Below, one piece after another: positions 27,147 through 64,000 of a stretch of DNA of 64,000 nucleotides; positions within the stretch are counted from its first letter, which is position 1, and every line of letters starts with the position of its first letter. The DNA is from Escherichia coli (lineage in GTDB: Bacteria; Pseudomonadota; Gammaproteobacteria; Enterobacterales; Enterobacteriaceae). A model generated the notes under the pieces. That model was not told the DNA's origin. It saw only the letters and a list, made by a program, of their open reading frames with translations, and made no database searches. A program made the position numbers and the translations under genes. Location: the NCBI RefSeq assembly GCF_011045215.1, contig NZ_CP049201.1; one strand, written 5' to 3'.

Positions 27147-28895
27147 TGGCATCGCCCGCAACAGAATACTATTCGTATTAATTCACGACTGTGGAGCAAT
27201 GTAAACCGCCAACTGGATAAGGCCTTGTTTGGAAGATAATGTCCGGAACAGACGGATGTATCCCCGGCGTATTCATATTCAGTAAATTCAATTTTCCACC
27301 GGGGCTTGTTTATTATGCTAAGGTTTAATTTAACGTGACGCTTTGTTGTTCTTTAGTCTCTCTATCCTTAAGAAGACGGGCTGATATTACACCGGACATC
27401 ATTGAACCATTCACATTAAGCGCTGTTCTTGCCATATCAACGATCGGCTCTATGGCAATAAAAATACCCACTAATGCGACAGGGAAATTAAGTGTTGAAA
27501 GGACAATCAGCGCCGCGAATGTCCCACCACCACCTACGCCTGCTACCCCTATTGAGCCAAGCGCGATGGCAGGTAAAAGAGTAGCGAGGAATTGCAATGA
27601 GAAGGGATCGATACCCATTGTTGGAGCAATTATCGCCACCATCACGGCAGGATAAATCCCAGCGCAGCCATTTTGTCCCATGTTGGAACCAAAAGACGCT
27701 GCAATATTAGCAATCGTATTTGGAACCCCCAATTTTTCCAATGCAGAAATAGCCAGAGGAATTGAAGCCGCACTACTGCGAGAAACAAACGCAAAGGTAA
27801 GTACTTGCCAGACGGTCTTGTAATAGTTAACGGGGTTTTTACCTATTAACAGCAAAATGCCCGAGTGAACAATAAACATCACAAAAACGGCCAGATAACA
27901 GGCGACGATGAACCCGAGCAAATTGGTAAACTGTGAAAGCTGATACGTTGAGAAGACTTTCGCCATTAGTGCCATTACCCCATAAGGCGTCAGCGCAATG
28001 ACAATACGGACCATTTTCATTACCCATATTTGAATCGCGTTGATCCCCGCGCTCAATTTTTCGCCCTCTGCTGGTGCATCTTTCTTTACTTTTAACAGCG
28101 CAATACCAGCAAGAATTGTAAAGATGACGATGCCAATAACCGAAACACTTCTTGCCCCGGTCAGATCAAGGAAGAGGTTGGTTGGGATCAATGACGTAAT
28201 GAGTCGCGGTAAAGATACCGCAGCTGTTTTCGAGACGTCATCGCTGGTTAAAGAGGATTGCATATGACCAAAGGCGCTGGCATCAAGGCCAATTGCACTG
28301 GCAATAGCCAGGCCAACTAAACCTGCAATCATGACTAAACACAACATACAGGCAACAATAGTTAAAGACATCTTGCCAATACCAGCGCTATTTTCGAGCT
28401 TATTAATCGCTGAAAGAATAGAAATGAATATGAGTGGAACGGCAACAAGTTTTAATAAATTAACATAACCGTTACCAGCAATATTATACCATTCGATAAC
28501 GGTTTCACTGTTTGTCTCAGGAATGAAATGCAGGGAGATACCAATGATAGCCCCCAGGAAAATCGCGATAAAAACACTTTTGGAAAGGGATTCGCTCTTT
28601 TGATCCGTTTTGAAAATCCCCCATGAGCAGATCAAAAAAAGCACAATATATGTGAAAGTTGTAACCATTTTTTAAGCCTCTTGCCTCATTCAGCACCTGA
28701 AATGCCGGAAAGAGTTTGTTGTAAAAAATCTGCGCCATAAGACGCAGGGACGAGGCGATTATAGAGAAATTTTTTCTCATATTCACATCAAATGTAGGGG
28801 GGTTGGAATTTGAATAAGCTCTTATTAATTGAATTCGTTAATTGTTCTCTTTTTCAGATGAACAAATATTAGTCATCTGATTATTTATTGTCACT
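27147..28895. other. About 1.7 kb AT-richer inserted segment separating rstA from rstB
   Basis: rstA and rstB are adjacent in K-12 as I recall; here 1.73 kb intervenes. Left boundary is placed where the RstA C-terminus departs from the expected ...PHAWE; right boundary just upstream of the rstB start. Boundaries are approximate. Confidence 0.6.
27325..28668 (-). CDS. DAACS-family (sodium:dicarboxylate symporter superfamily) transporter, TcyP/YdjN-like, putative L-cystine or amino-acid:cation symporter
   Basis: 447-aa polytopic ORF; shares the family signature FVSRSSAASIPL and long conserved blocks (WYNIAGNGYVNLL, ASFGSNMGQNGCAGIYPA, GVGGGGTFAALIV) with my recollection of E. coli YdjN/TcyP, estimated at about 50-55 percent identity; GAGG RBS upstream; visibly AT-richer than the flanks. 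Confidence 0.8.
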   Translation of the reverse strand: MVTTFTYIVLFLICSWGIFKTDQKSESLSKSVFIAIFLGAIIGISLHFIPETNSETVIEWYNIAGNGYVNLLKLVAVPLIFISILSAINKLENSAGIGKMSLTIVACMLCLVMIAGLVGLAIASAIGLDASAFGHMQSSLTSDDVSKTAAVSLPRLITSLIPTNLFLDLTGARSVSVIGIVIFTILAGIALLKVKKDAPAEGEKLSAGINAIQIWVMKMVRIVIALTPYGVMALMAKVFSTYQLSQFTNLLGFIVACYLAVFVMFIVHSGILLLIGKNPVNYYKTVWQVLTFAFVSRSSAASIPLAISALEKLGVPNTIANIAASFGSNMGQNGCAGIYPAVMVAIIAPTMGIDPFSLQFLATLLPAIALGSIGVAGVGGGGTFAALIVLSTLNFPVALVGIFIAIEPIVDMARTALNVNGSMMSGVISARLLKDRETKEQQSVTLN

Positions 28896-29612
28896 ATCCC
28901 ATGCATGAGGCGCAAAAAGATAGCCTTTGTTACGCACGGTTTTAATGCGATAAGGTTCTGCGGCGTTATCGAGCAGTTTTTTTCTTAACCGCGAAATAGC
29001 CACGTCCACGCTACGATCCAGTCCGTCATAACTGACGCCGCGTAAATTTTTCAGCAATGCATCGCGGTCCATGATTTGCCCGGCATGGGTAGCTAATTCC
29101 CACAATAATTCGAAATCAGCTGTTGAGAGCGAGATTTCAGTGTTAGCCAGGGTGACTACGCGGTTGATAGGATCGATGGTCAACGTGCCGAAATGCAGGG
29201 CTTTGTAGGGAGTCAGAGACGTTTCCTGAAGACCTTTGGTCAGTGTGGCTTGCTCATTCTGACGCAAATGCAAACGTAAACGCGCTAGCAAAACAGCAGG
29301 GGGCGTCGTTTTGAGAATATAGTCGCAGGCACCCATTTCCAGTGCCAGGATGTGGTTCATATCGCTATCGAGAGAGGTTAGAAGAACAATCGGTCCAGAC
29401 CACTTTGCGCGTAAATCACGACAAATGGTCATGCCGTCCTTGCCTGGTAGCATGATGTCGAGTAACACCAAATCCGGATTTTCTCGCAAAATGGTTTCTT
29501 CGGCATGGTCGCCGCGCGGCTCTACGGTAACCTGCATATCATGTTTTGCCAGGTACGCGGCAATCAGTGAACCGACTTCCGCATCATCTTCCACAAATAC
29601 GATAGTGTTCAT
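28881..29612 (-). CDS. rstA: RstA response regulator (OmpR family) with an altered C-terminal tail
   Basis: ORF 28881-29672; start taken at MNTIVFVEDDAEVGSLIAAYL...; receiver and winged-helix domains intact; ends ...GYLFAPHAWDSDNK, where I recall ...HAWE in K-12, consistent with the insertion junction lying in the last codon. Confidence 0.9.
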   Translation of the reverse strand: MNTIVFVEDDAEVGSLIAAYLAKHDMQVTVEPRGDHAEETILRENPDLVLLDIMLPGKDGMTICRDLRAKWSGPIVLLTSLDSDMNHILALEMGACDYILKTTPPAVLLARLRLHLRQNEQATLTKGLQETSLTPYKALHFGTLTIDPINRVVTLANTEISLSTADFELLWELATHAGQIMDRDALLKNLRGVSYDGLDRSVDVAISRLRKKLLDNAAEPYRIKTVRNKGYLFAPHAWDSDNK

Positions 29613-57851: not shown

Positions 57852-58871
57852 ATGAAAAGCATATTAATTGAAAAACCGAATCAACTGGCGATTGTCGAAC
57901 GTGAAATACCCACCCCGTCAGCGGGTGAAGTACGAGTAAAAGTGAAACTTGCCGGAATTTGTGGTTCAGATAGCCATATTTATCGTGGGCATAATCCTTT
58001 TGCGAAATATCCGCGCGTCATTGGACATGAATTCTTTGGCGTCATTGATGCGGTGGGTGAAGGTGTGGAAAGCGCCAGAGTCGGTGATCGTGTTGCTGTC
58101 GATCCGGTGGTCAGCTGTGGTCATTGCTATCCGTGCTCAATAGGTAAGCCGAACGTTTGTACGACACTCGCTGTATTAGGTGTGCACGCTGACGGTGGTT
58201 TCAGTGAATATGCTGTGGTTCCGGCAAAAAATGCGTGGAAAATTCCTGAAGCATTGGCCGATCAATATGCGGTAATGATCGAACCTTTTACCATTGCGGC
58301 TAACGTAACCGGTCATGGTCAACCGACTGAAAATGATACCGTTCTGGTTTATGGTGCCGGTCCAATCGGCCTGACGATCGTTCAGGTATTAAAAGGCGTC
58401 TATAACGTTAAAAATGTGATTGTTGCCGATCGCATTGATGAACGACTGGAAAAAGCGAAAGAGAGCGGGGCTGACTGGGTGATTAATAACAGCCAGACAC
58501 CGCTTGGCGAGATTTTCGCTGAAAAAGGCATAAAGCCGACATTAATTATCGATGCGGCTTGTCATCCTTCTATCCTGAAAGAGGCCGTAACGCTGGCTTC
58601 TCCAGCGGCACGTATTGTATTGATGGGCTTCTCCAGTGAACCGTCTGAAGTGATTCAGCAAGGAATTACCGGAAAAGAACTCTCTATTTTCTCTTCACGC
58701 TTAAATGCAAATAAATTCCCGGTCGTTATCGACTGGTTAAGTAAAGGGTTAATTAAACCAGAAAAATTAATTACCCATACGTTTGATTTCCAGCATGTTG
58801 CTGATGCCATTAGTTTATTTGAACAGGATCAAAAACATTGCTGCAAAGTCTTACTCACTTTTTCTGAATAA
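57852..58871 (+). CDS. rspB: RspB, Zn-dependent alcohol dehydrogenase family
   Basis: ORF 57828-58871; start taken at MKSILIEKPNQLAIVEREIPTPSAGEVRVKVKLAGICGSDSHIY... giving 339 aa. Confidence 0.95.
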   Translation: MKSILIEKPNQLAIVEREIPTPSAGEVRVKVKLAGICGSDSHIYRGHNPFAKYPRVIGHEFFGVIDAVGEGVESARVGDRVAVDPVVSCGHCYPCSIGKPNVCTTLAVLGVHADGGFSEYAVVPAKNAWKIPEALADQYAVMIEPFTIAANVTGHGQPTENDTVLVYGAGPIGLTIVQVLKGVYNVKNVIVADRIDERLEKAKESGADWVINNSQTPLGEIFAEKGIKPTLIIDAACHPSILKEAVTLASPAARIVLMGFSSEPSEVIQQGITGKELSIFSSRLNANKFPVVIDWLSKGLIKPEKLITHTFDFQHVADAISLFEQDQKHCCKVLLTFSE

Positions 58872-58928
58872 TACCAATAACGGCGAGTAAGTAGTACGCA
58901 TCTTACCTCTTTTTTAGAGATAACCATT

Positions 58929-59039
58929 ATGACAATAGAAAAACACGAAAGAAGCACTAAGGATTTGGTGAAAGCAGCGGTATCGGGATGGCTGGGCACT
59001 GCGCTTGAATTTATGGATTTCAAGAGTCATGCGTATTAA
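58929..59039 (+). pseudogene. ydfJ: N-terminal fragment of an MFS transporter gene (ydfJ-like) truncated by prophage integration
   Basis: Hand-translated 36-aa ORF MTIEKHERSTKDLVKAAVSGWLGTALEFMDFKSHAY; the first 31 residues look like a sugar/metabolite MFS N-terminus (GxLxEWxDF-like motif), then the frame terminates 5 codons later, 20 bp before the integrase stop. Confidence 0.5.
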
Positions 59040-59058
59040 CTATTTGATAAATATTAAA

Positions 59059-60354
59059 TTAATTTTTCATTGCTTCGTTATGGGGCATGGTTGGGGCAAA
59101 CTCGCTTAACTGTGTATTTAACAAAGCTACCTGTGCATTATTGTTTTCAGACATCCATTTTCCGTATACCTGAAATACCATTTGCGCATCTGCATGGCCC
59201 ATCTGGTTTGCTATAAATGCCGGGTTAGCACCAGCTGTCAGCGACCAGCAGGCATAAGTATGTCTCGACTGATATGATTTTCGATGGCGGAGTCCGGCAC
59301 GTTTTATCGCTGCGTCCCACATCTGCCTTATTGAGTCAACGGTAAAATGGTCACCATAATTTTTTACTCTCGCTGACACTTCAGGTTGAAAAACAAAGGT
59401 GCATTTTTGTTTTTCTGTTCTGCCATACTCTCTGAGGTGAACATCAATGATATGCTCTTTGCTCAGTCTCGTTAATGTCATCTGACTCCGGAGAGCGTCG
59501 ATTGCTGGCTTAATAAGATGAATGACCCGATTGGTTCCCGCCTGTGTTTTTGGTACCGTGAAACGGTCTTTTGCTAAATTTCTCCTGATCATCATTGTTC
59601 CATTTTTCAGATCTATGTCCTCCCATCCAAGTGCACACAGCTCACCAGGGCGAACGCCAGTATAAACAGAAACACACCATAAATTTTTTGCTTGCTGATT
59701 TCTGCACGCATCGATAAGACGGATAAATTCTTCCCGCGAAAGAGGATCCGGAATGGTTCTTGATTCCTTTAATGGCGAGATCCCCTTAAACGGATTATCT
59801 GCCAGGTAACCGTTATCAACACCAAACTGGAACACGGCGTTAAGATTTGTCATGTAATTATTTACAGTTACAGCCGATCTCCCTGGTTGTGTAACAATAT
59901 AGTTACTTTTGGGGGTCTGGTATCCAGTCAGTAGCTCTTTACGAACCTCCAGTAATTTTTCTTTATTAATCGATGAGGCAAGATTTTTTTCACCGATTAT
60001 GCTCAGGATATTTTTGATGACGGCACGGTATGTGTTGAGTGATGTTTTGGCGACTTCAGTTTCTTTCAGTGCCAGAAATTTTTCAGCCAGTTCTTTTATG
60101 GTTAAATCTTGTCGGGCCTCACCAAATTTTTCCAGATTGCGTGAGGAGGGAAACTGTTTTGCATAGTCGAAAACACCAGTTTTTATTGCGTAACAAACAG
60201 AGGAGCGTAGTTCACCTGCAACGCGCCTGTTTTTTGCTGTGTCAGGAACCCCCAGATTTTCCCTGACTCTTACGCCTTTATAAACAAACCAGATACGTAA
60301 TTTCCCTCCATGGTTTTCCACGCCTGTCGGATATTTCATTTCAACTTCTCTCAT
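59059..60354 (-). CDS. Phage tyrosine integrase (lambda Int family), apparently full length
   Basis: 431-aa ORF (or 426 aa from the second Met); C-terminal catalytic region with HxxR (HRKSYQSRH) and a downstream Tyr; sits at the prophage/chromosome junction. Confidence 0.85.
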   Translation of the reverse strand: MREVEMKYPTGVENHGGKLRIWFVYKGVRVRENLGVPDTAKNRRVAGELRSSVCYAIKTGVFDYAKQFPSSRNLEKFGEARQDLTIKELAEKFLALKETEVAKTSLNTYRAVIKNILSIIGEKNLASSINKEKLLEVRKELLTGYQTPKSNYIVTQPGRSAVTVNNYMTNLNAVFQFGVDNGYLADNPFKGISPLKESRTIPDPLSREEFIRLIDACRNQQAKNLWCVSVYTGVRPGELCALGWEDIDLKNGTMMIRRNLAKDRFTVPKTQAGTNRVIHLIKPAIDALRSQMTLTRLSKEHIIDVHLREYGRTEKQKCTFVFQPEVSARVKNYGDHFTVDSIRQMWDAAIKRAGLRHRKSYQSRHTYACWSLTAGANPAFIANQMGHADAQMVFQVYGKWMSENNNAQVALLNTQLSEFAPTMPHNEAMKN

Positions 60355-60373
60355 TAGTTAGTGTGGCTTTTAG

Positions 60374-60625
60374 TCAAGTAAGATGACGTCTTGGTCTCGC
60401 TGATGCCTGGCGCTCAATCCAGCGATCAATTTCTTCCAGGTTGTAAAAGCATGGACTGTTATCCCATGGCATACCGTCATGAGCGACATGCTTATATTCC
60501 CTTCCTTCCATAAACGATTTTTCCCGGGCCTTTTTTAACGTACCTTTTTTTATTCCTTTCAGCGCAATTAACTGCTCTTCGGATACCCATTTGCCGGGAG
60601 AGACAATCATGATTACTTCGCTCAT
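60374..60625 (-). CDS. Putative excisionase / small DNA-binding protein
   Basis: 83-aa ORF MSEVIMIVSPGKWVSEEQLIALKGIKKGTLKKAREKSF... directly upstream of the integrase, the usual xis position; no confident sequence match from memory. Confidence 0.5.
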   Translation of the reverse strand: MSEVIMIVSPGKWVSEEQLIALKGIKKGTLKKAREKSFMEGREYKHVAHDGMPWDNSPCFYNLEEIDRWIERQASARPRRHLT

Positions 60626-60697
60626 CGATTTCTTTATCTCTTACATCAGACGAGCGCCGGTTGCAGAATACCAGTCACAACCGGCGACAGTTGAACA

Positions 60698-63169
60698 TTA
60701 AGAATCAGCCTGACTCGGGATCAGTTTTTGCCAGATAACTGAAACGTATTTTGCCTGGTAACGGGCGTCATCAAGTGCATTATGGCGCTCACCTTCGAAT
60801 GGAATAGCCGTTCTGGGATCGAAGTCTATGGCTTTCCCCAGCTCAACGATTGTGCGTACATCGCGATCGTTGTAGTAACGCCACGGGCAGGGGATCCCCT
60901 GCCGTTCGTATGAACGGCGCAAAATCGTGTTGTCGAAGTTGGCTCCATTTCCCCAGACCTGAACAAAAAATTCACCGGAGTTTTCGTCGATAAATTCCCG
61001 CAATTGTAACAGTGCATCATCTAACGGGATTTCATCGGTCATAATGGCAGATTGCGCTTCGCGTGATTGCTTAAGCCACCATTTAATGGTGTCCCGATCA
61101 ATGACTCCGCCAGCAGTTTCCAGATCGATAGTCTTACTAAATTCCGGTCCCATATCTCCGGTTTGCGGATCGAAAAATATTGCACCTATTGAGATGATCG
61201 GGGCATCAGGATTTTTTCCCATGGTTTCAAGGTCGATCATTAGATGGTCACACGTCCTGCTGGTGGATGTGATTTCGTGATGACCGTTCACCTTAATTGA
61301 GTGATCTGCCGTCTCGCCAGTTTCATTATCGCTATTGTGATGCTGATTGCCGCCAGTGTTCTCCTTGTGTGGATGTTCAGCGCCTTCCATTTCCTCCGGA
61401 TCATCTTCCTGAACTTCAACCTGATACTCTTCATCGAATGTTTCTTGGTATGTTGCGTCGCCCATCACCGCGCCACAATCAGGGCAGTTGCCGCCGCCGG
61501 TCTGACCGCAGGCGGTGCAGACTTTTTCCACTTCCTGTTGCGCCACTGGTTCAGGCTGTTTCGTTTCTGGCTCGTTTTGTAACGCATTTGGGCTGTTTTG
61601 TTCCGCTTTTTGGTAGTTCCGTTCCGATTCATGCTGGTTCTGGTTCACAGAATCGCGGGTCTGGATCCCCTTAACCCATTTCGGATCATTCGGGTCACTA
61701 ATCCCTTCAACAAATTCACCACGTGATGCAGCAAGCAACTTATCGGCGTCAGGCTGGCTGATATTGGCTGCCTGCATAATTTTGTTTACTTCGTCAGCGG
61801 TAACTTTTATCGGCTCTGGTTGTTCTGAATCTTCAGCGGTATCTACATTTTGCGGTAAGCCCGTGTATGTGCCATTTTTTCGGGCAAAATATTCTTCTTT
61901 TGTGATTTCAGTGGCGCCAGCAGCCAGTGCCTTATCCAGACCAGAAAGTTTGTTTGCGCGACCGTATTTTTCTCCGTCCTTATCTGCGAAGAGGAAATAG
62001 AACGGCCCCTCACGCTCTACAGATGGTTCAGCTTCCGGCGCGGTTTCATTTTTTGGGATATCAGATACCTCAGTTTCCACTGCATCAGTTTGTGTTTCTG
62101 ATGACTGGAGAACATCAACAGTGCCCAGGTCTGTTTCTTCATTCTCAAACACGCCCTTTGTCGTCAGGTATTCGCAGATATATTTGTTCAGTGCTACGGG
62201 ATCTTTGTGAATGTCGATCGGACGCTCACGGACAAGGCCAAAAATAGTTTGGCGGTCGTAGCGAAGGGCATCAGGCTGTTTGCGCATTGATGCCGAGATA
62301 CGCTTCCAGTCTTCGCGGTCGTTGTCGATAACTTCTTTTTTTGCCCAGCGATGGATGCTGCCGTCAATGTTTCCGGCATCCACATCACCAGGCCAGAGAG
62401 CGTAGGCCAGTTCGTCATCCAGTGTTTTCCATGTCTGCTTGTATTCGCGATGAATGGCAGCAATGACCGGGCTGATTTTTCCTGTTGAATTTTCAGTGTA
62501 CTGTTGATTGGCTCTGGCGCGGGCGAGATCAACAACAGACGTGTATTTTCCGGTTTCCTTGCGTTCACCTTCGCGACGTTTTTTCCAGATGCGCATCTCT
62601 GTCTGAATTTCGGGCCATTTAGCACCAGGAATACATTTATGCTTAACCCACCCAATGGCGTGCAACTTAAGCTCCGGATACATGGCGTTAACTTCTGGCA
62701 TTTTCATCAACGCTTCAACGATATGTCCGTCGAATGTTGCCATGTCTTCCTGCAACAATTCCTGTGTGCTAATAACCATATCAACGGTGATGTTTTCACA
62801 TGTGTCGAACTTAACCATGACAGCGTTCTGTACTTCAGGGGCCAGCTTGTCAAAAGTGACGTTCATCGGATCGGATTCAGTCTCAACCGGGACAAAAGAA
62901 GCAGACTCCTCATCCCAGCGGTTTTCCTGCATATATTCAGCATCCCATGAATCGAGGGCAGGGCGGGGTATGCCAGGTTTATCCTCGCAGATAATAAATT
63001 TATAAGCGCAGTCCTGAGCAGCCGGATAATGTTCCAGGAACTGCCAGTGAAATTTTGCTCGAGCACGGCGTTCGTCGCCAGCTTCAATGGCTGTGGCTAC
63101 AGCCACCGCGCCTTCTCCCCTTGTTGCCAGTTCGTCAGGAATAGCGGCGCAAATAAAGACTTTACTCAT
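60698..63169 (-). CDS. YdfE-like large prophage nuclease: RecE-like segment, Cys4 zinc ribbon, acidic linker and C-terminal DnaQ-like DEDDh 3'-5' exonuclease domain
   Basis: 823-aa ORF; the segment DADKLLAASRGEFVEGISDPNDPKWVKGIQTRD resembles one I associate with RecE; CTACGQTGGGNCPDCG zinc ribbon; C-terminus has DEDDh-type motifs (MIDLETMG ... VWGNGANFDNTIL ... HNALDDARY). Confidence 0.7.
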   Translation of the reverse strand: MSKVFICAAIPDELATRGEGAVAVATAIEAGDERRARAKFHWQFLEHYPAAQDCAYKFIICEDKPGIPRPALDSWDAEYMQENRWDEESASFVPVETESDPMNVTFDKLAPEVQNAVMVKFDTCENITVDMVISTQELLQEDMATFDGHIVEALMKMPEVNAMYPELKLHAIGWVKHKCIPGAKWPEIQTEMRIWKKRREGERKETGKYTSVVDLARARANQQYTENSTGKISPVIAAIHREYKQTWKTLDDELAYALWPGDVDAGNIDGSIHRWAKKEVIDNDREDWKRISASMRKQPDALRYDRQTIFGLVRERPIDIHKDPVALNKYICEYLTTKGVFENEETDLGTVDVLQSSETQTDAVETEVSDIPKNETAPEAEPSVEREGPFYFLFADKDGEKYGRANKLSGLDKALAAGATEITKEEYFARKNGTYTGLPQNVDTAEDSEQPEPIKVTADEVNKIMQAANISQPDADKLLAASRGEFVEGISDPNDPKWVKGIQTRDSVNQNQHESERNYQKAEQNSPNALQNEPETKQPEPVAQQEVEKVCTACGQTGGGNCPDCGAVMGDATYQETFDEEYQVEVQEDDPEEMEGAEHPHKENTGGNQHHNSDNETGETADHSIKVNGHHEITSTSRTCDHLMIDLETMGKNPDAPIISIGAIFFDPQTGDMGPEFSKTIDLETAGGVIDRDTIKWWLKQSREAQSAIMTDEIPLDDALLQLREFIDENSGEFFVQVWGNGANFDNTILRRSYERQGIPCPWRYYNDRDVRTIVELGKAIDFDPRTAIPFEGERHNALDDARYQAKYVSVIWQKLIPSQADS

Positions 63170-63262
63170 TTTGTTTGAACCTCATGACAGATTTAAGGAT
63201 GAACAAATCCCTGCCATTGCTGGCATATAAGAATGAAACCGGATATTTATTACGGAACTGTT

Positions 63263-63454
63263 TTAAAGACCTGCCGGGATTTCGATATTATCCTGGTGAA
63301 TAACTTTATCGACCGGGTAACAGTTACCGGGAATTTTCTGTTCGGTTGCTGCAGTCATACACTCCTGCATTGTCCTGTGAACACTGACTGCAATATCAAC
63401 TGGCTCTCCGGAAACAAGAAAAACTGTCAGAACAAGCGCAAATGCTGAATTCAT
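63263..63454 (-). CDS. ydfD: YdfD, small prophage lysis-associated protein
   Basis: ORF 63263-63508; start taken at MNSAFALVLTVFLVSGEPVDIAVSVHRTMQECMTAATEQKIPGNCYPVDKVIHQDNIEIPAGL (63 aa); 4-nt overlap with the dicB stop. Confidence 0.7.
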   Translation of the reverse strand: MNSAFALVLTVFLVSGEPVDIAVSVHRTMQECMTAATEQKIPGNCYPVDKVIHQDNIEIPAGL

Positions 63455-63639
63455 TGTGCACATCCTTTTGGCATCAGACGTAAACGAGCCAGCATTGAAA
63501 CAATGCATATTTTATTTAATAGCTCCCGTTCTTGTTTTCTCTTGTTAATGGCATCTTCAGTAAATACAGGGTTACTGATAGTGACACCAATTTCAAAACA
63601 ACCTTCAGACGTATTAACGTTTGGTAATAACGTTTTCAT
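63451..63639 (-). CDS. dicB: DicB, prophage-encoded cell-division inhibitor (acts with MinC)
   Basis: ORF 63451-63744; start taken at MKTLLPNVNTSEGCFEIGVTISNPVFTEDAINKRKQERELLNKICIVSMLARLRLMPKGCAQ (62 aa), matching DicB as I recall it. Confidence 0.85.
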   Translation of the reverse strand: MKTLLPNVNTSEGCFEIGVTISNPVFTEDAINKRKQERELLNKICIVSMLARLRLMPKGCAQ

Positions 63640-63808
63640 TATCGCGTCCTCAACAATGAATTTTGTGATGCAGTGCCTGGTGCCTCCAGGTGACGTTAAC
63701 CAGTTAACAATTAACGCCGGATACAGAGAATCCACCCATAACACTGTTTTTGGTTTTAACTGTTCCGCGTGCGCTTAGCCGCATTCACCGCATCACAAAA
63801 TTCACTTT

Positions 63809-63866
63809 AAAAACGGCGGCAGAGCAGTCACGGAGTAAAACTGATACCGCCAAACGTCACCAGAAA
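63809..63866 (-). ncRNA. dicF: DicF small regulatory RNA (represses ftsZ and other targets) with its intrinsic terminator
   Basis: Minus strand reads TTTCTGGTGACGTTTGGCGGTATCAGTTTTACTCCGTGACTGCTCTGCCGCCGTTTTT, which matches the DicF sequence I recall, including the GC stem and U-run; lies directly upstream of dicB. Confidence 0.85.
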
Positions 63867-63964
63867 ATTGATAACAGAGGGCGTTGCAGCGGGGTTGTCA
63901 CTTAAGCGTATGGTCAACCTGACAACTCGGTGTCCTCAACGGGGAAGGAATAACCCCGCCATAC

Positions 63965-64000
63965 TTACCGCCGCGCCATTTCGCGGATTGCCACAACCGG
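63965..64000 (-). CDS. 3' end of a prophage ORF upstream of dicF (ydfC-like?), partial at window edge
   Basis: Minus-strand frame reads ...PVVAIREMARR then stop at 63965-63967; only 11 codons are in the window, so identity is unsupported. Confidence 0.25.
   Translation of the reverse strand, partial: PVVAIREMARR

Follow-up and report, generated by a model that had tools for sequence, protein, structure and literature searches.

A dicF-dicB-ydfD cassette at the Qin attachment position of a non-K-12 Escherichia coli strain

The window, by which we mean the whole 64,000-nucleotide stretch of Escherichia coli DNA that was analysed, ends within a common E. coli prophage and carries a group of three short elements known from the Qin prophage of strain K-12. 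They are the small RNA (sRNA) gene dicF (63814..63866), dicB (63451..63639), which encodes a cell division inhibitor, and ydfD (63263..63454), which encodes a lysis protein. All three lie on the minus strand, and their order, their spacing, their ribosome-binding sites and the 4-nt overlap between dicB and ydfD are as in K-12. The original prediction had placed DicF with its terminator, a 62-aa DicB and a 63-aa YdfD at 63263-63867; each of these elements is present, with coordinates that agree to within 1 nt. The protein-coding genes dicB and ydfD are already annotated at this locus by RefSeq. Alignment of the 801 nt from 63200 to 64000 with the Qin prophage of MG1655 contains 0 gaps and 8 mismatches. 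The MG1655 dicBF operon (dicF b1574, dicB b1575, ydfD b1576) is alike in chromosomal site, gene order, strand, spacing and overlap, and is set apart by two small changes, C53G in DicF and V6A in YdfD, and by the loss of a downstream segment described below.

The dicF gene of the window specifies a 53-nt RNA that matches K-12 DicF at 52 of 53 positions. The Rfam search that had been proposed as a check returned the DicF model RF00039 at 63865..63814. The match spans the full model (positions 1-52 of 52) and scores 72.5 bits, where the gathering score is 48; E is 7.5e-15 when 10 kb are scanned and 4.8e-14 over the whole 64-kb window. This was the sole match, as neither a second DicF copy nor any other Rfam RNA was reported in the scan of the 64-kb window. 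That the match is fortuitous, or reflects another prophage sRNA, can be dismissed altogether: besides the E-value over the whole window and the absence of competing Rfam matches, both the RNA and its flanks are those of K-12 dicF. Nucleotides 1-52 are identical to K-12, and the sole change affects the last nucleotide, between the terminator stem and the U-run. The 5' region, involved in xylR pairing, and the 3' region, involved in ftsZ and pykA pairing, are consequently the same as in the characterised K-12 RNA. That RNA represses ftsZ translation through base pairing, uses two pairing regions for its ftsZ, xylR and pykA targets, and is known to bind Hfq in K-12; a role for Rho-independent termination at its 3' end has also been described (PMC5069750).

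At the 3' end of DicF (63809..63851, minus strand), the minimum-free-energy fold is an interrupted hairpin of 7 + 5 pairs with a 9-nt loop (-16.6 kcal/mol) followed by UUUUU, with the sequence GCCGCCGUUUUU. Its z-score is modest (-1.96). This structure corresponds to the intrinsic terminator at which the 53-nt species ends, in agreement with the prediction of a DicF gene that retains its terminator. The hairpin was not reported by a consensus terminator scan, because that scan accepts loops of 3-8 nt whereas the stem here is interrupted and closes a 9-nt loop. Directly 5' of the DicF start is the AU-rich sequence UGUUAUCAAU, and further upstream the leader (63867..64000, minus strand) shows 2 differences from K-12. 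In K-12, DicF is excised from a polycistronic transcript, with RNase III producing a 190-nt species and RNase E being needed for the 53-nt species, and no promoter internal to the operon was found for dicF (PMC10448788). The leader is part of the 190-nt precursor and is cut by the end of the window; the 134 nt present 5' of DicF represent, together with it, nearly all of that precursor.

Pairing with ftsZ was predicted against the K-12 ftsZ region from -60 to +30, since the ftsZ gene of this strain lies outside the window. Both DicF alleles form the same duplex, in which DicF nt 4-52 face ftsZ -29..+25, with predicted energies of -38.9 and -38.5 kcal/mol for the two alleles and with nt 53 unpaired in both. 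The idea that C53G alters targeting or termination was rejected, as nt 53 lies outside both the predicted ftsZ duplex and the terminator stem. The G53 allele is also carried by the related strains E24377A and B4103-1 (both checked), and the 81-nt DicF region is found, letter for letter as in the window, in 888 records from complete E. coli assemblies.

Between dicF and dicB lies a spacer of 174 nt (63640..63813, minus strand), which shows no gaps and 2 mismatches in the alignment to K-12 if DicF nt 53 is excluded. It contains the dicB ribosome-binding site: the sequence TTGAGGACGCGATAATG directly precedes the dicB ATG, and its GAGGA is kept. The dicB gene differs from the K-12 allele by one synonymous nucleotide change, so that the proteins are identical over 62/62 residues, and DicB matches PF05358 with 136.8 bits (cut-off 27) and NF049927 with 132.8 bits (cut-off 100). 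The ydfD gene starts within the dicB stop (ATGA); this overlap and the AAGGA 5' of the ydfD start are both kept. Its product, annotated as 'lysis protein YdfD' in relatives, matches PF07358 (DUF1482) with 92 bits (cut-off 25) and is identical to K-12 YdfD at 62/63 residues, the sole change being V6A, with the N- and C-termini unchanged. Two longer open reading frames, of 81 aa (63263..63508) and 97 aa (63451..63744), were rejected as gene models because the starts of the 63-aa and 62-aa forms have ribosome-binding sites and agree with the K-12 and RefSeq annotations.

The functions of these two proteins are known from K-12. DicB works with MinC and ManYZ, and YdfD causes lysis of dividing cells, for which it is proposed to act via IspG, to which its binding has been reported; lysis requires an intact YdfD, including both its N- and C-terminal ends, and is prevented when DicB is co-expressed (PMC8835842). 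The division-inhibition and lysis role ascribed to the cassette by the original prediction is supported to the extent that the alleles found here are identical or near-identical to the K-12 alleles on which these functions were demonstrated. Past the ydfD stop, after 38 nt, a weak terminator-like hairpin (63212..63225, minus strand) was picked up by the consensus scan; it has 5 pairs and the tail GGGATTTGTT, is a pattern match only, and is identical in K-12. As no transcript extending into ydfE was detected in K-12 (PMC10448788), the hairpin at 63225..63212 may be related to this lack.

Downstream of ydfD, on the same strand, three further prophage genes separate the cassette from the chromosome. 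The first (60698..63169) encodes an exonuclease of 823 aa that is full-length here and reduced to the pseudogene ydfE in K-12. Its residues 642-813 match PF16473 (227 bits), a C-terminal Rv2179c-like 3'-5' exoribonuclease domain, and the approximately 640 N-terminal residues are without a Pfam domain; residues 246-625 partly match the exodeoxyribonuclease VIII model, with 283 bits, below its cut-off of 1269. A 6-nt indel distinguishes it from relatives, the protein being 825 aa long in B4103-1 and E24377A. The second gene (60374..60625) encodes an 83-aa protein of the excisionase family (PF06806, 108 bits), carries the same annotation in relatives and is absent from K-12. The third (59059..60339) encodes a tyrosine integrase of 426 aa as annotated in relatives, the open reading frame extending to 60354, with a PF12167 arm-binding domain and a PF00589 catalytic domain. 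Beyond the integrase, on the plus strand (57852..59039), are the chromosomal genes rspB (57852-58871) and ynfP (58929-59039), which flank the Qin attachment position and also adjoin the intQ end of Qin in K-12; ynfP is identical to its K-12 counterpart at 35/36 residues. As is characteristic of a Qin-type dicBF operon, dicF, dicB and ydfD thus share one strand at the rspB/ynfP attachment site.

Aligned with the solved Tn1549 integrase, the integrase of the window shares the Arg (TGVRPGE), Lys (PKTQAG), Arg-His (SRHT), His (GHAD) and Tyr (QVYGKW) residues, and it has Y-Q-S-R at the H-A-M-R position, with Tyr in place of His. The original prediction had described the cassette as lying next to a probably functional integrase. 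From its sequence the functional integrase is plausible, and its frame is intact, unlike that of K-12 intQ; the adjacency does not hold, as the integrase gene is 2.9 kb downstream, past the exonuclease and excisionase genes.

The window and K-12 differ in this arm of the prophage. In a blast comparison, homology to K-12 was restricted to window positions 58872-60218 and 62403-64000, the latter alignment ending within the exonuclease gene. The segment matching 60219-62402 is missing from K-12 Qin, and an IS2E sits there. What K-12 has lost comprises the N-terminal part of the integrase, xis and the C-terminal two thirds of the exonuclease, whereas all three genes are intact in the window. Since K-12 lacks 60219-62402 and carries IS2E at that position, only pseudogene stumps, ydfE and intQ, remain there of two genes that the window has intact.

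Elsewhere in the window, comparison of its whole length with B4103-1 revealed two further differences. One is an insertion of 1750 bp (27147-28896) exactly between rstB and rstA, the genes of a two-component pair that are otherwise adjacent. Its G+C content is 42%, compared with 48-51% in the flanking genes, and it contains an open reading frame (27325..28668, minus strand) for a 447-aa transporter of the cation:dicarboxylate symporter family, whose NCBIfam scores against GltP, DctA and SstT all fall far short of the cut-offs. Of 5426 complete E. coli genomes, a single one (NZ_OZ197100.1, an environmental isolate from the Netherlands) has this insertion at the same site. The transporter gene is also present on four plasmids, with 99.3-99.5% identity, and on pBOKZ_020007, the one plasmid of the four that was examined, it lies between two IS1 copies; no IS1 was found in the window and no flanking repeats at the junctions of the insertion. 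This insertion is more unusual than the dicF-dicB-ydfD cassette. The other difference concerns a tandem repeat of about 96 bp in rsxC (about 1492-1626), which has fewer copies than in B4103-1, the window being about 250 bp shorter there.

Only 134 nt of sequence precede the DicF 5' end in the window; the dicBp promoter, ydfA/B/C, dicA and dicC lie beyond base 64000. In K-12, dicBp is located upstream of ydfA and is repressed by DicA, which is relieved by the antirepressor Rem, and DicA and DicC form a CI/Cro-like switch (PMC10448788). Prophages at the Qin position of B4103-1, E24377A and 23S01245-7 carry an int-xis-exonuclease-ydfD-dicB-dicF block that is 98.7-99.8% identical to the window. 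None of them is identical to it, the values for the prophage end being 99.8% (1 gap) for B4103-1, 99.3% (no gap) for 23S01245-7 and 98.7% for E24377A. All three have the gene order int-xis-exonuclease-ydfD-dicB-(dicF)-ydfB'-ydfA-dicA-dicC. The upstream region with the immunity genes is present in the three relatives; its sequence is mosaic, with two types of repressor. E24377A encodes a K-12-type DicA (133/136 aligned positions identical) and an identical DicC. B4103-1 encodes a repressor 56% identical to DicA and a Cro-like protein identical to DicC at 65/77 positions, and 23S01245-7, compared by annotation, has genes equal in size, placement and annotation to this pair. In all three relatives, about 0.5 kb of unrelated sequence without an annotated gene takes the place of the K-12 segment comprising the 3' end of ydfB and ydfC, while dicF-dicB-ydfD stays together as one block. 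Similarity to K-12 begins again 164-220 nt before dicF. The three strains differ among themselves in their upstream immunity regions and in the completeness of their prophages, and because they disagree on repressor type and completeness, no relative can stand in for the part of the prophage beyond the window.

Almost certainly, a Qin-type lambdoid prophage is integrated at its usual site beside rspB/ynfP in this non-K-12 E. coli strain and the window carries the distal part of its dicBF operon. At the level of sequence, the identity of the cassette is confirmed and nothing counts against it. The proposed alignment to K-12 dicF, dicB and ydfD gave 52/53 nt, 62/62 aa and 62/63 aa, and the intact frames and Pfam matches bear out the predicted 62-aa DicB and 63-aa YdfD. 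The prediction had itself named divergence of the DicF pairing sequence or a disrupted dicB frame as the findings that would speak against it, and no frame is disrupted and no pairing region of DicF has diverged.

The same data bear on the state of the element in which the cassette resides. Qin is cryptic in K-12, and relatives have many pseudogenes among their prophage genes at this locus, which could suggest that the cassette has decayed into a non-functional relic whose sRNA or reading frames are broken. Such decay is very improbable here, and the sequence evidence refutes it: both frames are intact and encode proteins identical or near-identical to K-12 alleles that are toxic when expressed (PMC10448788), every DicF nucleotide of the predicted ftsZ duplex is identical to K-12, and the block is retained by most E. 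coli genomes. At the other extreme, the cassette could belong to a lambdoid prophage that is still complete and inducible, in which it would be a host-takeover module of the early left operon, like lambda kil, rather than a domesticated cryptic module. The intact int, xis and exonuclease genes, co-oriented downstream of ydfD, point in this direction, as does 23S01245-7, which has terminase, portal, capsid, tail and rem genes at the site and is the sole complete genome sharing the rare rstA/rstB insertion. Set against this, B4103-1, the strain most similar over the prophage end, has fragments of structural genes, its last prophage gene lying about 15 kb from the integrase; the window covers only about 5 kb of prophage; and the Tyr of the integrase takes the place of a His in Tn1549 Int. 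On balance a complete prophage is a possibility that we take seriously while leaning against it. The more specific version, in which the window would be the left arm of a complete, inducible Qin-type prophage with intact exonuclease, xis and int genes and a non-K-12 DicA-type repressor of the 56% identity class, is put forward tentatively and is a shade more doubtful still.

In lambda, kil belongs to a repressor-controlled early leftward operon, upstream of the recombination and int/xis genes. DicB and Kil are not known to be related in sequence, and to our knowledge lambda has no DicF-like sRNA at the position of kil. Kil of the pL operon is likewise a small prophage-encoded inhibitor; it is reported to target the assembly of the FtsZ ring, and its inhibition to depend on ZipA (PMC3961180), whereas DicB acts via MinC.

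How the cassette of the distal dicBF operon would work can be outlined by combining two kinds of information. Sequence identity, RNA structure, intact frames and synteny come from this analysis, while transcription, processing and activities are inferred from the K-12 literature. Transcription would start at dicBp, beyond base 64000, and run leftward on the minus strand. Cleavage by RNase E would then generate the DicF 5' end, and the DicF hairpin and U-run would end part of the transcripts, giving the 53-nt sRNA, with the transcripts that read through bearing dicB and the translationally coupled ydfD. Once the prophage repressor is relieved, DicF would pair with the ribosome-binding region of ftsZ and block its translation, and YdfD would lyse dividing cells, reportedly via IspG.

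The cassette is real but ordinary, and was already known. Among 5426 complete E. coli genomes, 4741 contain a match to the 801-nt region, and in 3829 of these the coverage is 80% or more; the region occurs at a median of two places per genome and at up to ten. A 2016 study had already described how widely Qin-like and other prophages retain dicF and the dicBF operon (PMC5069750). Because most E. coli genomes contain the cassette, its relevance to host filamentation, which the original prediction had stressed, is generic. The cassette is among the best-studied modules of cryptic prophages, and the present finding has little import beyond annotation. Its practical value lies in a correct label for the locus and in the observation that this strain keeps the int-xis-exonuclease arm lost from K-12. 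Whether the strain filaments or lyses upon derepression of the prophage depends on the immunity region beyond the window. If the prophage should prove complete and equipped with a repressor of the 56% class, it would represent the undecayed ancestor state of K-12 Qin, and the cassette would be a true phage early-operon module for host takeover.
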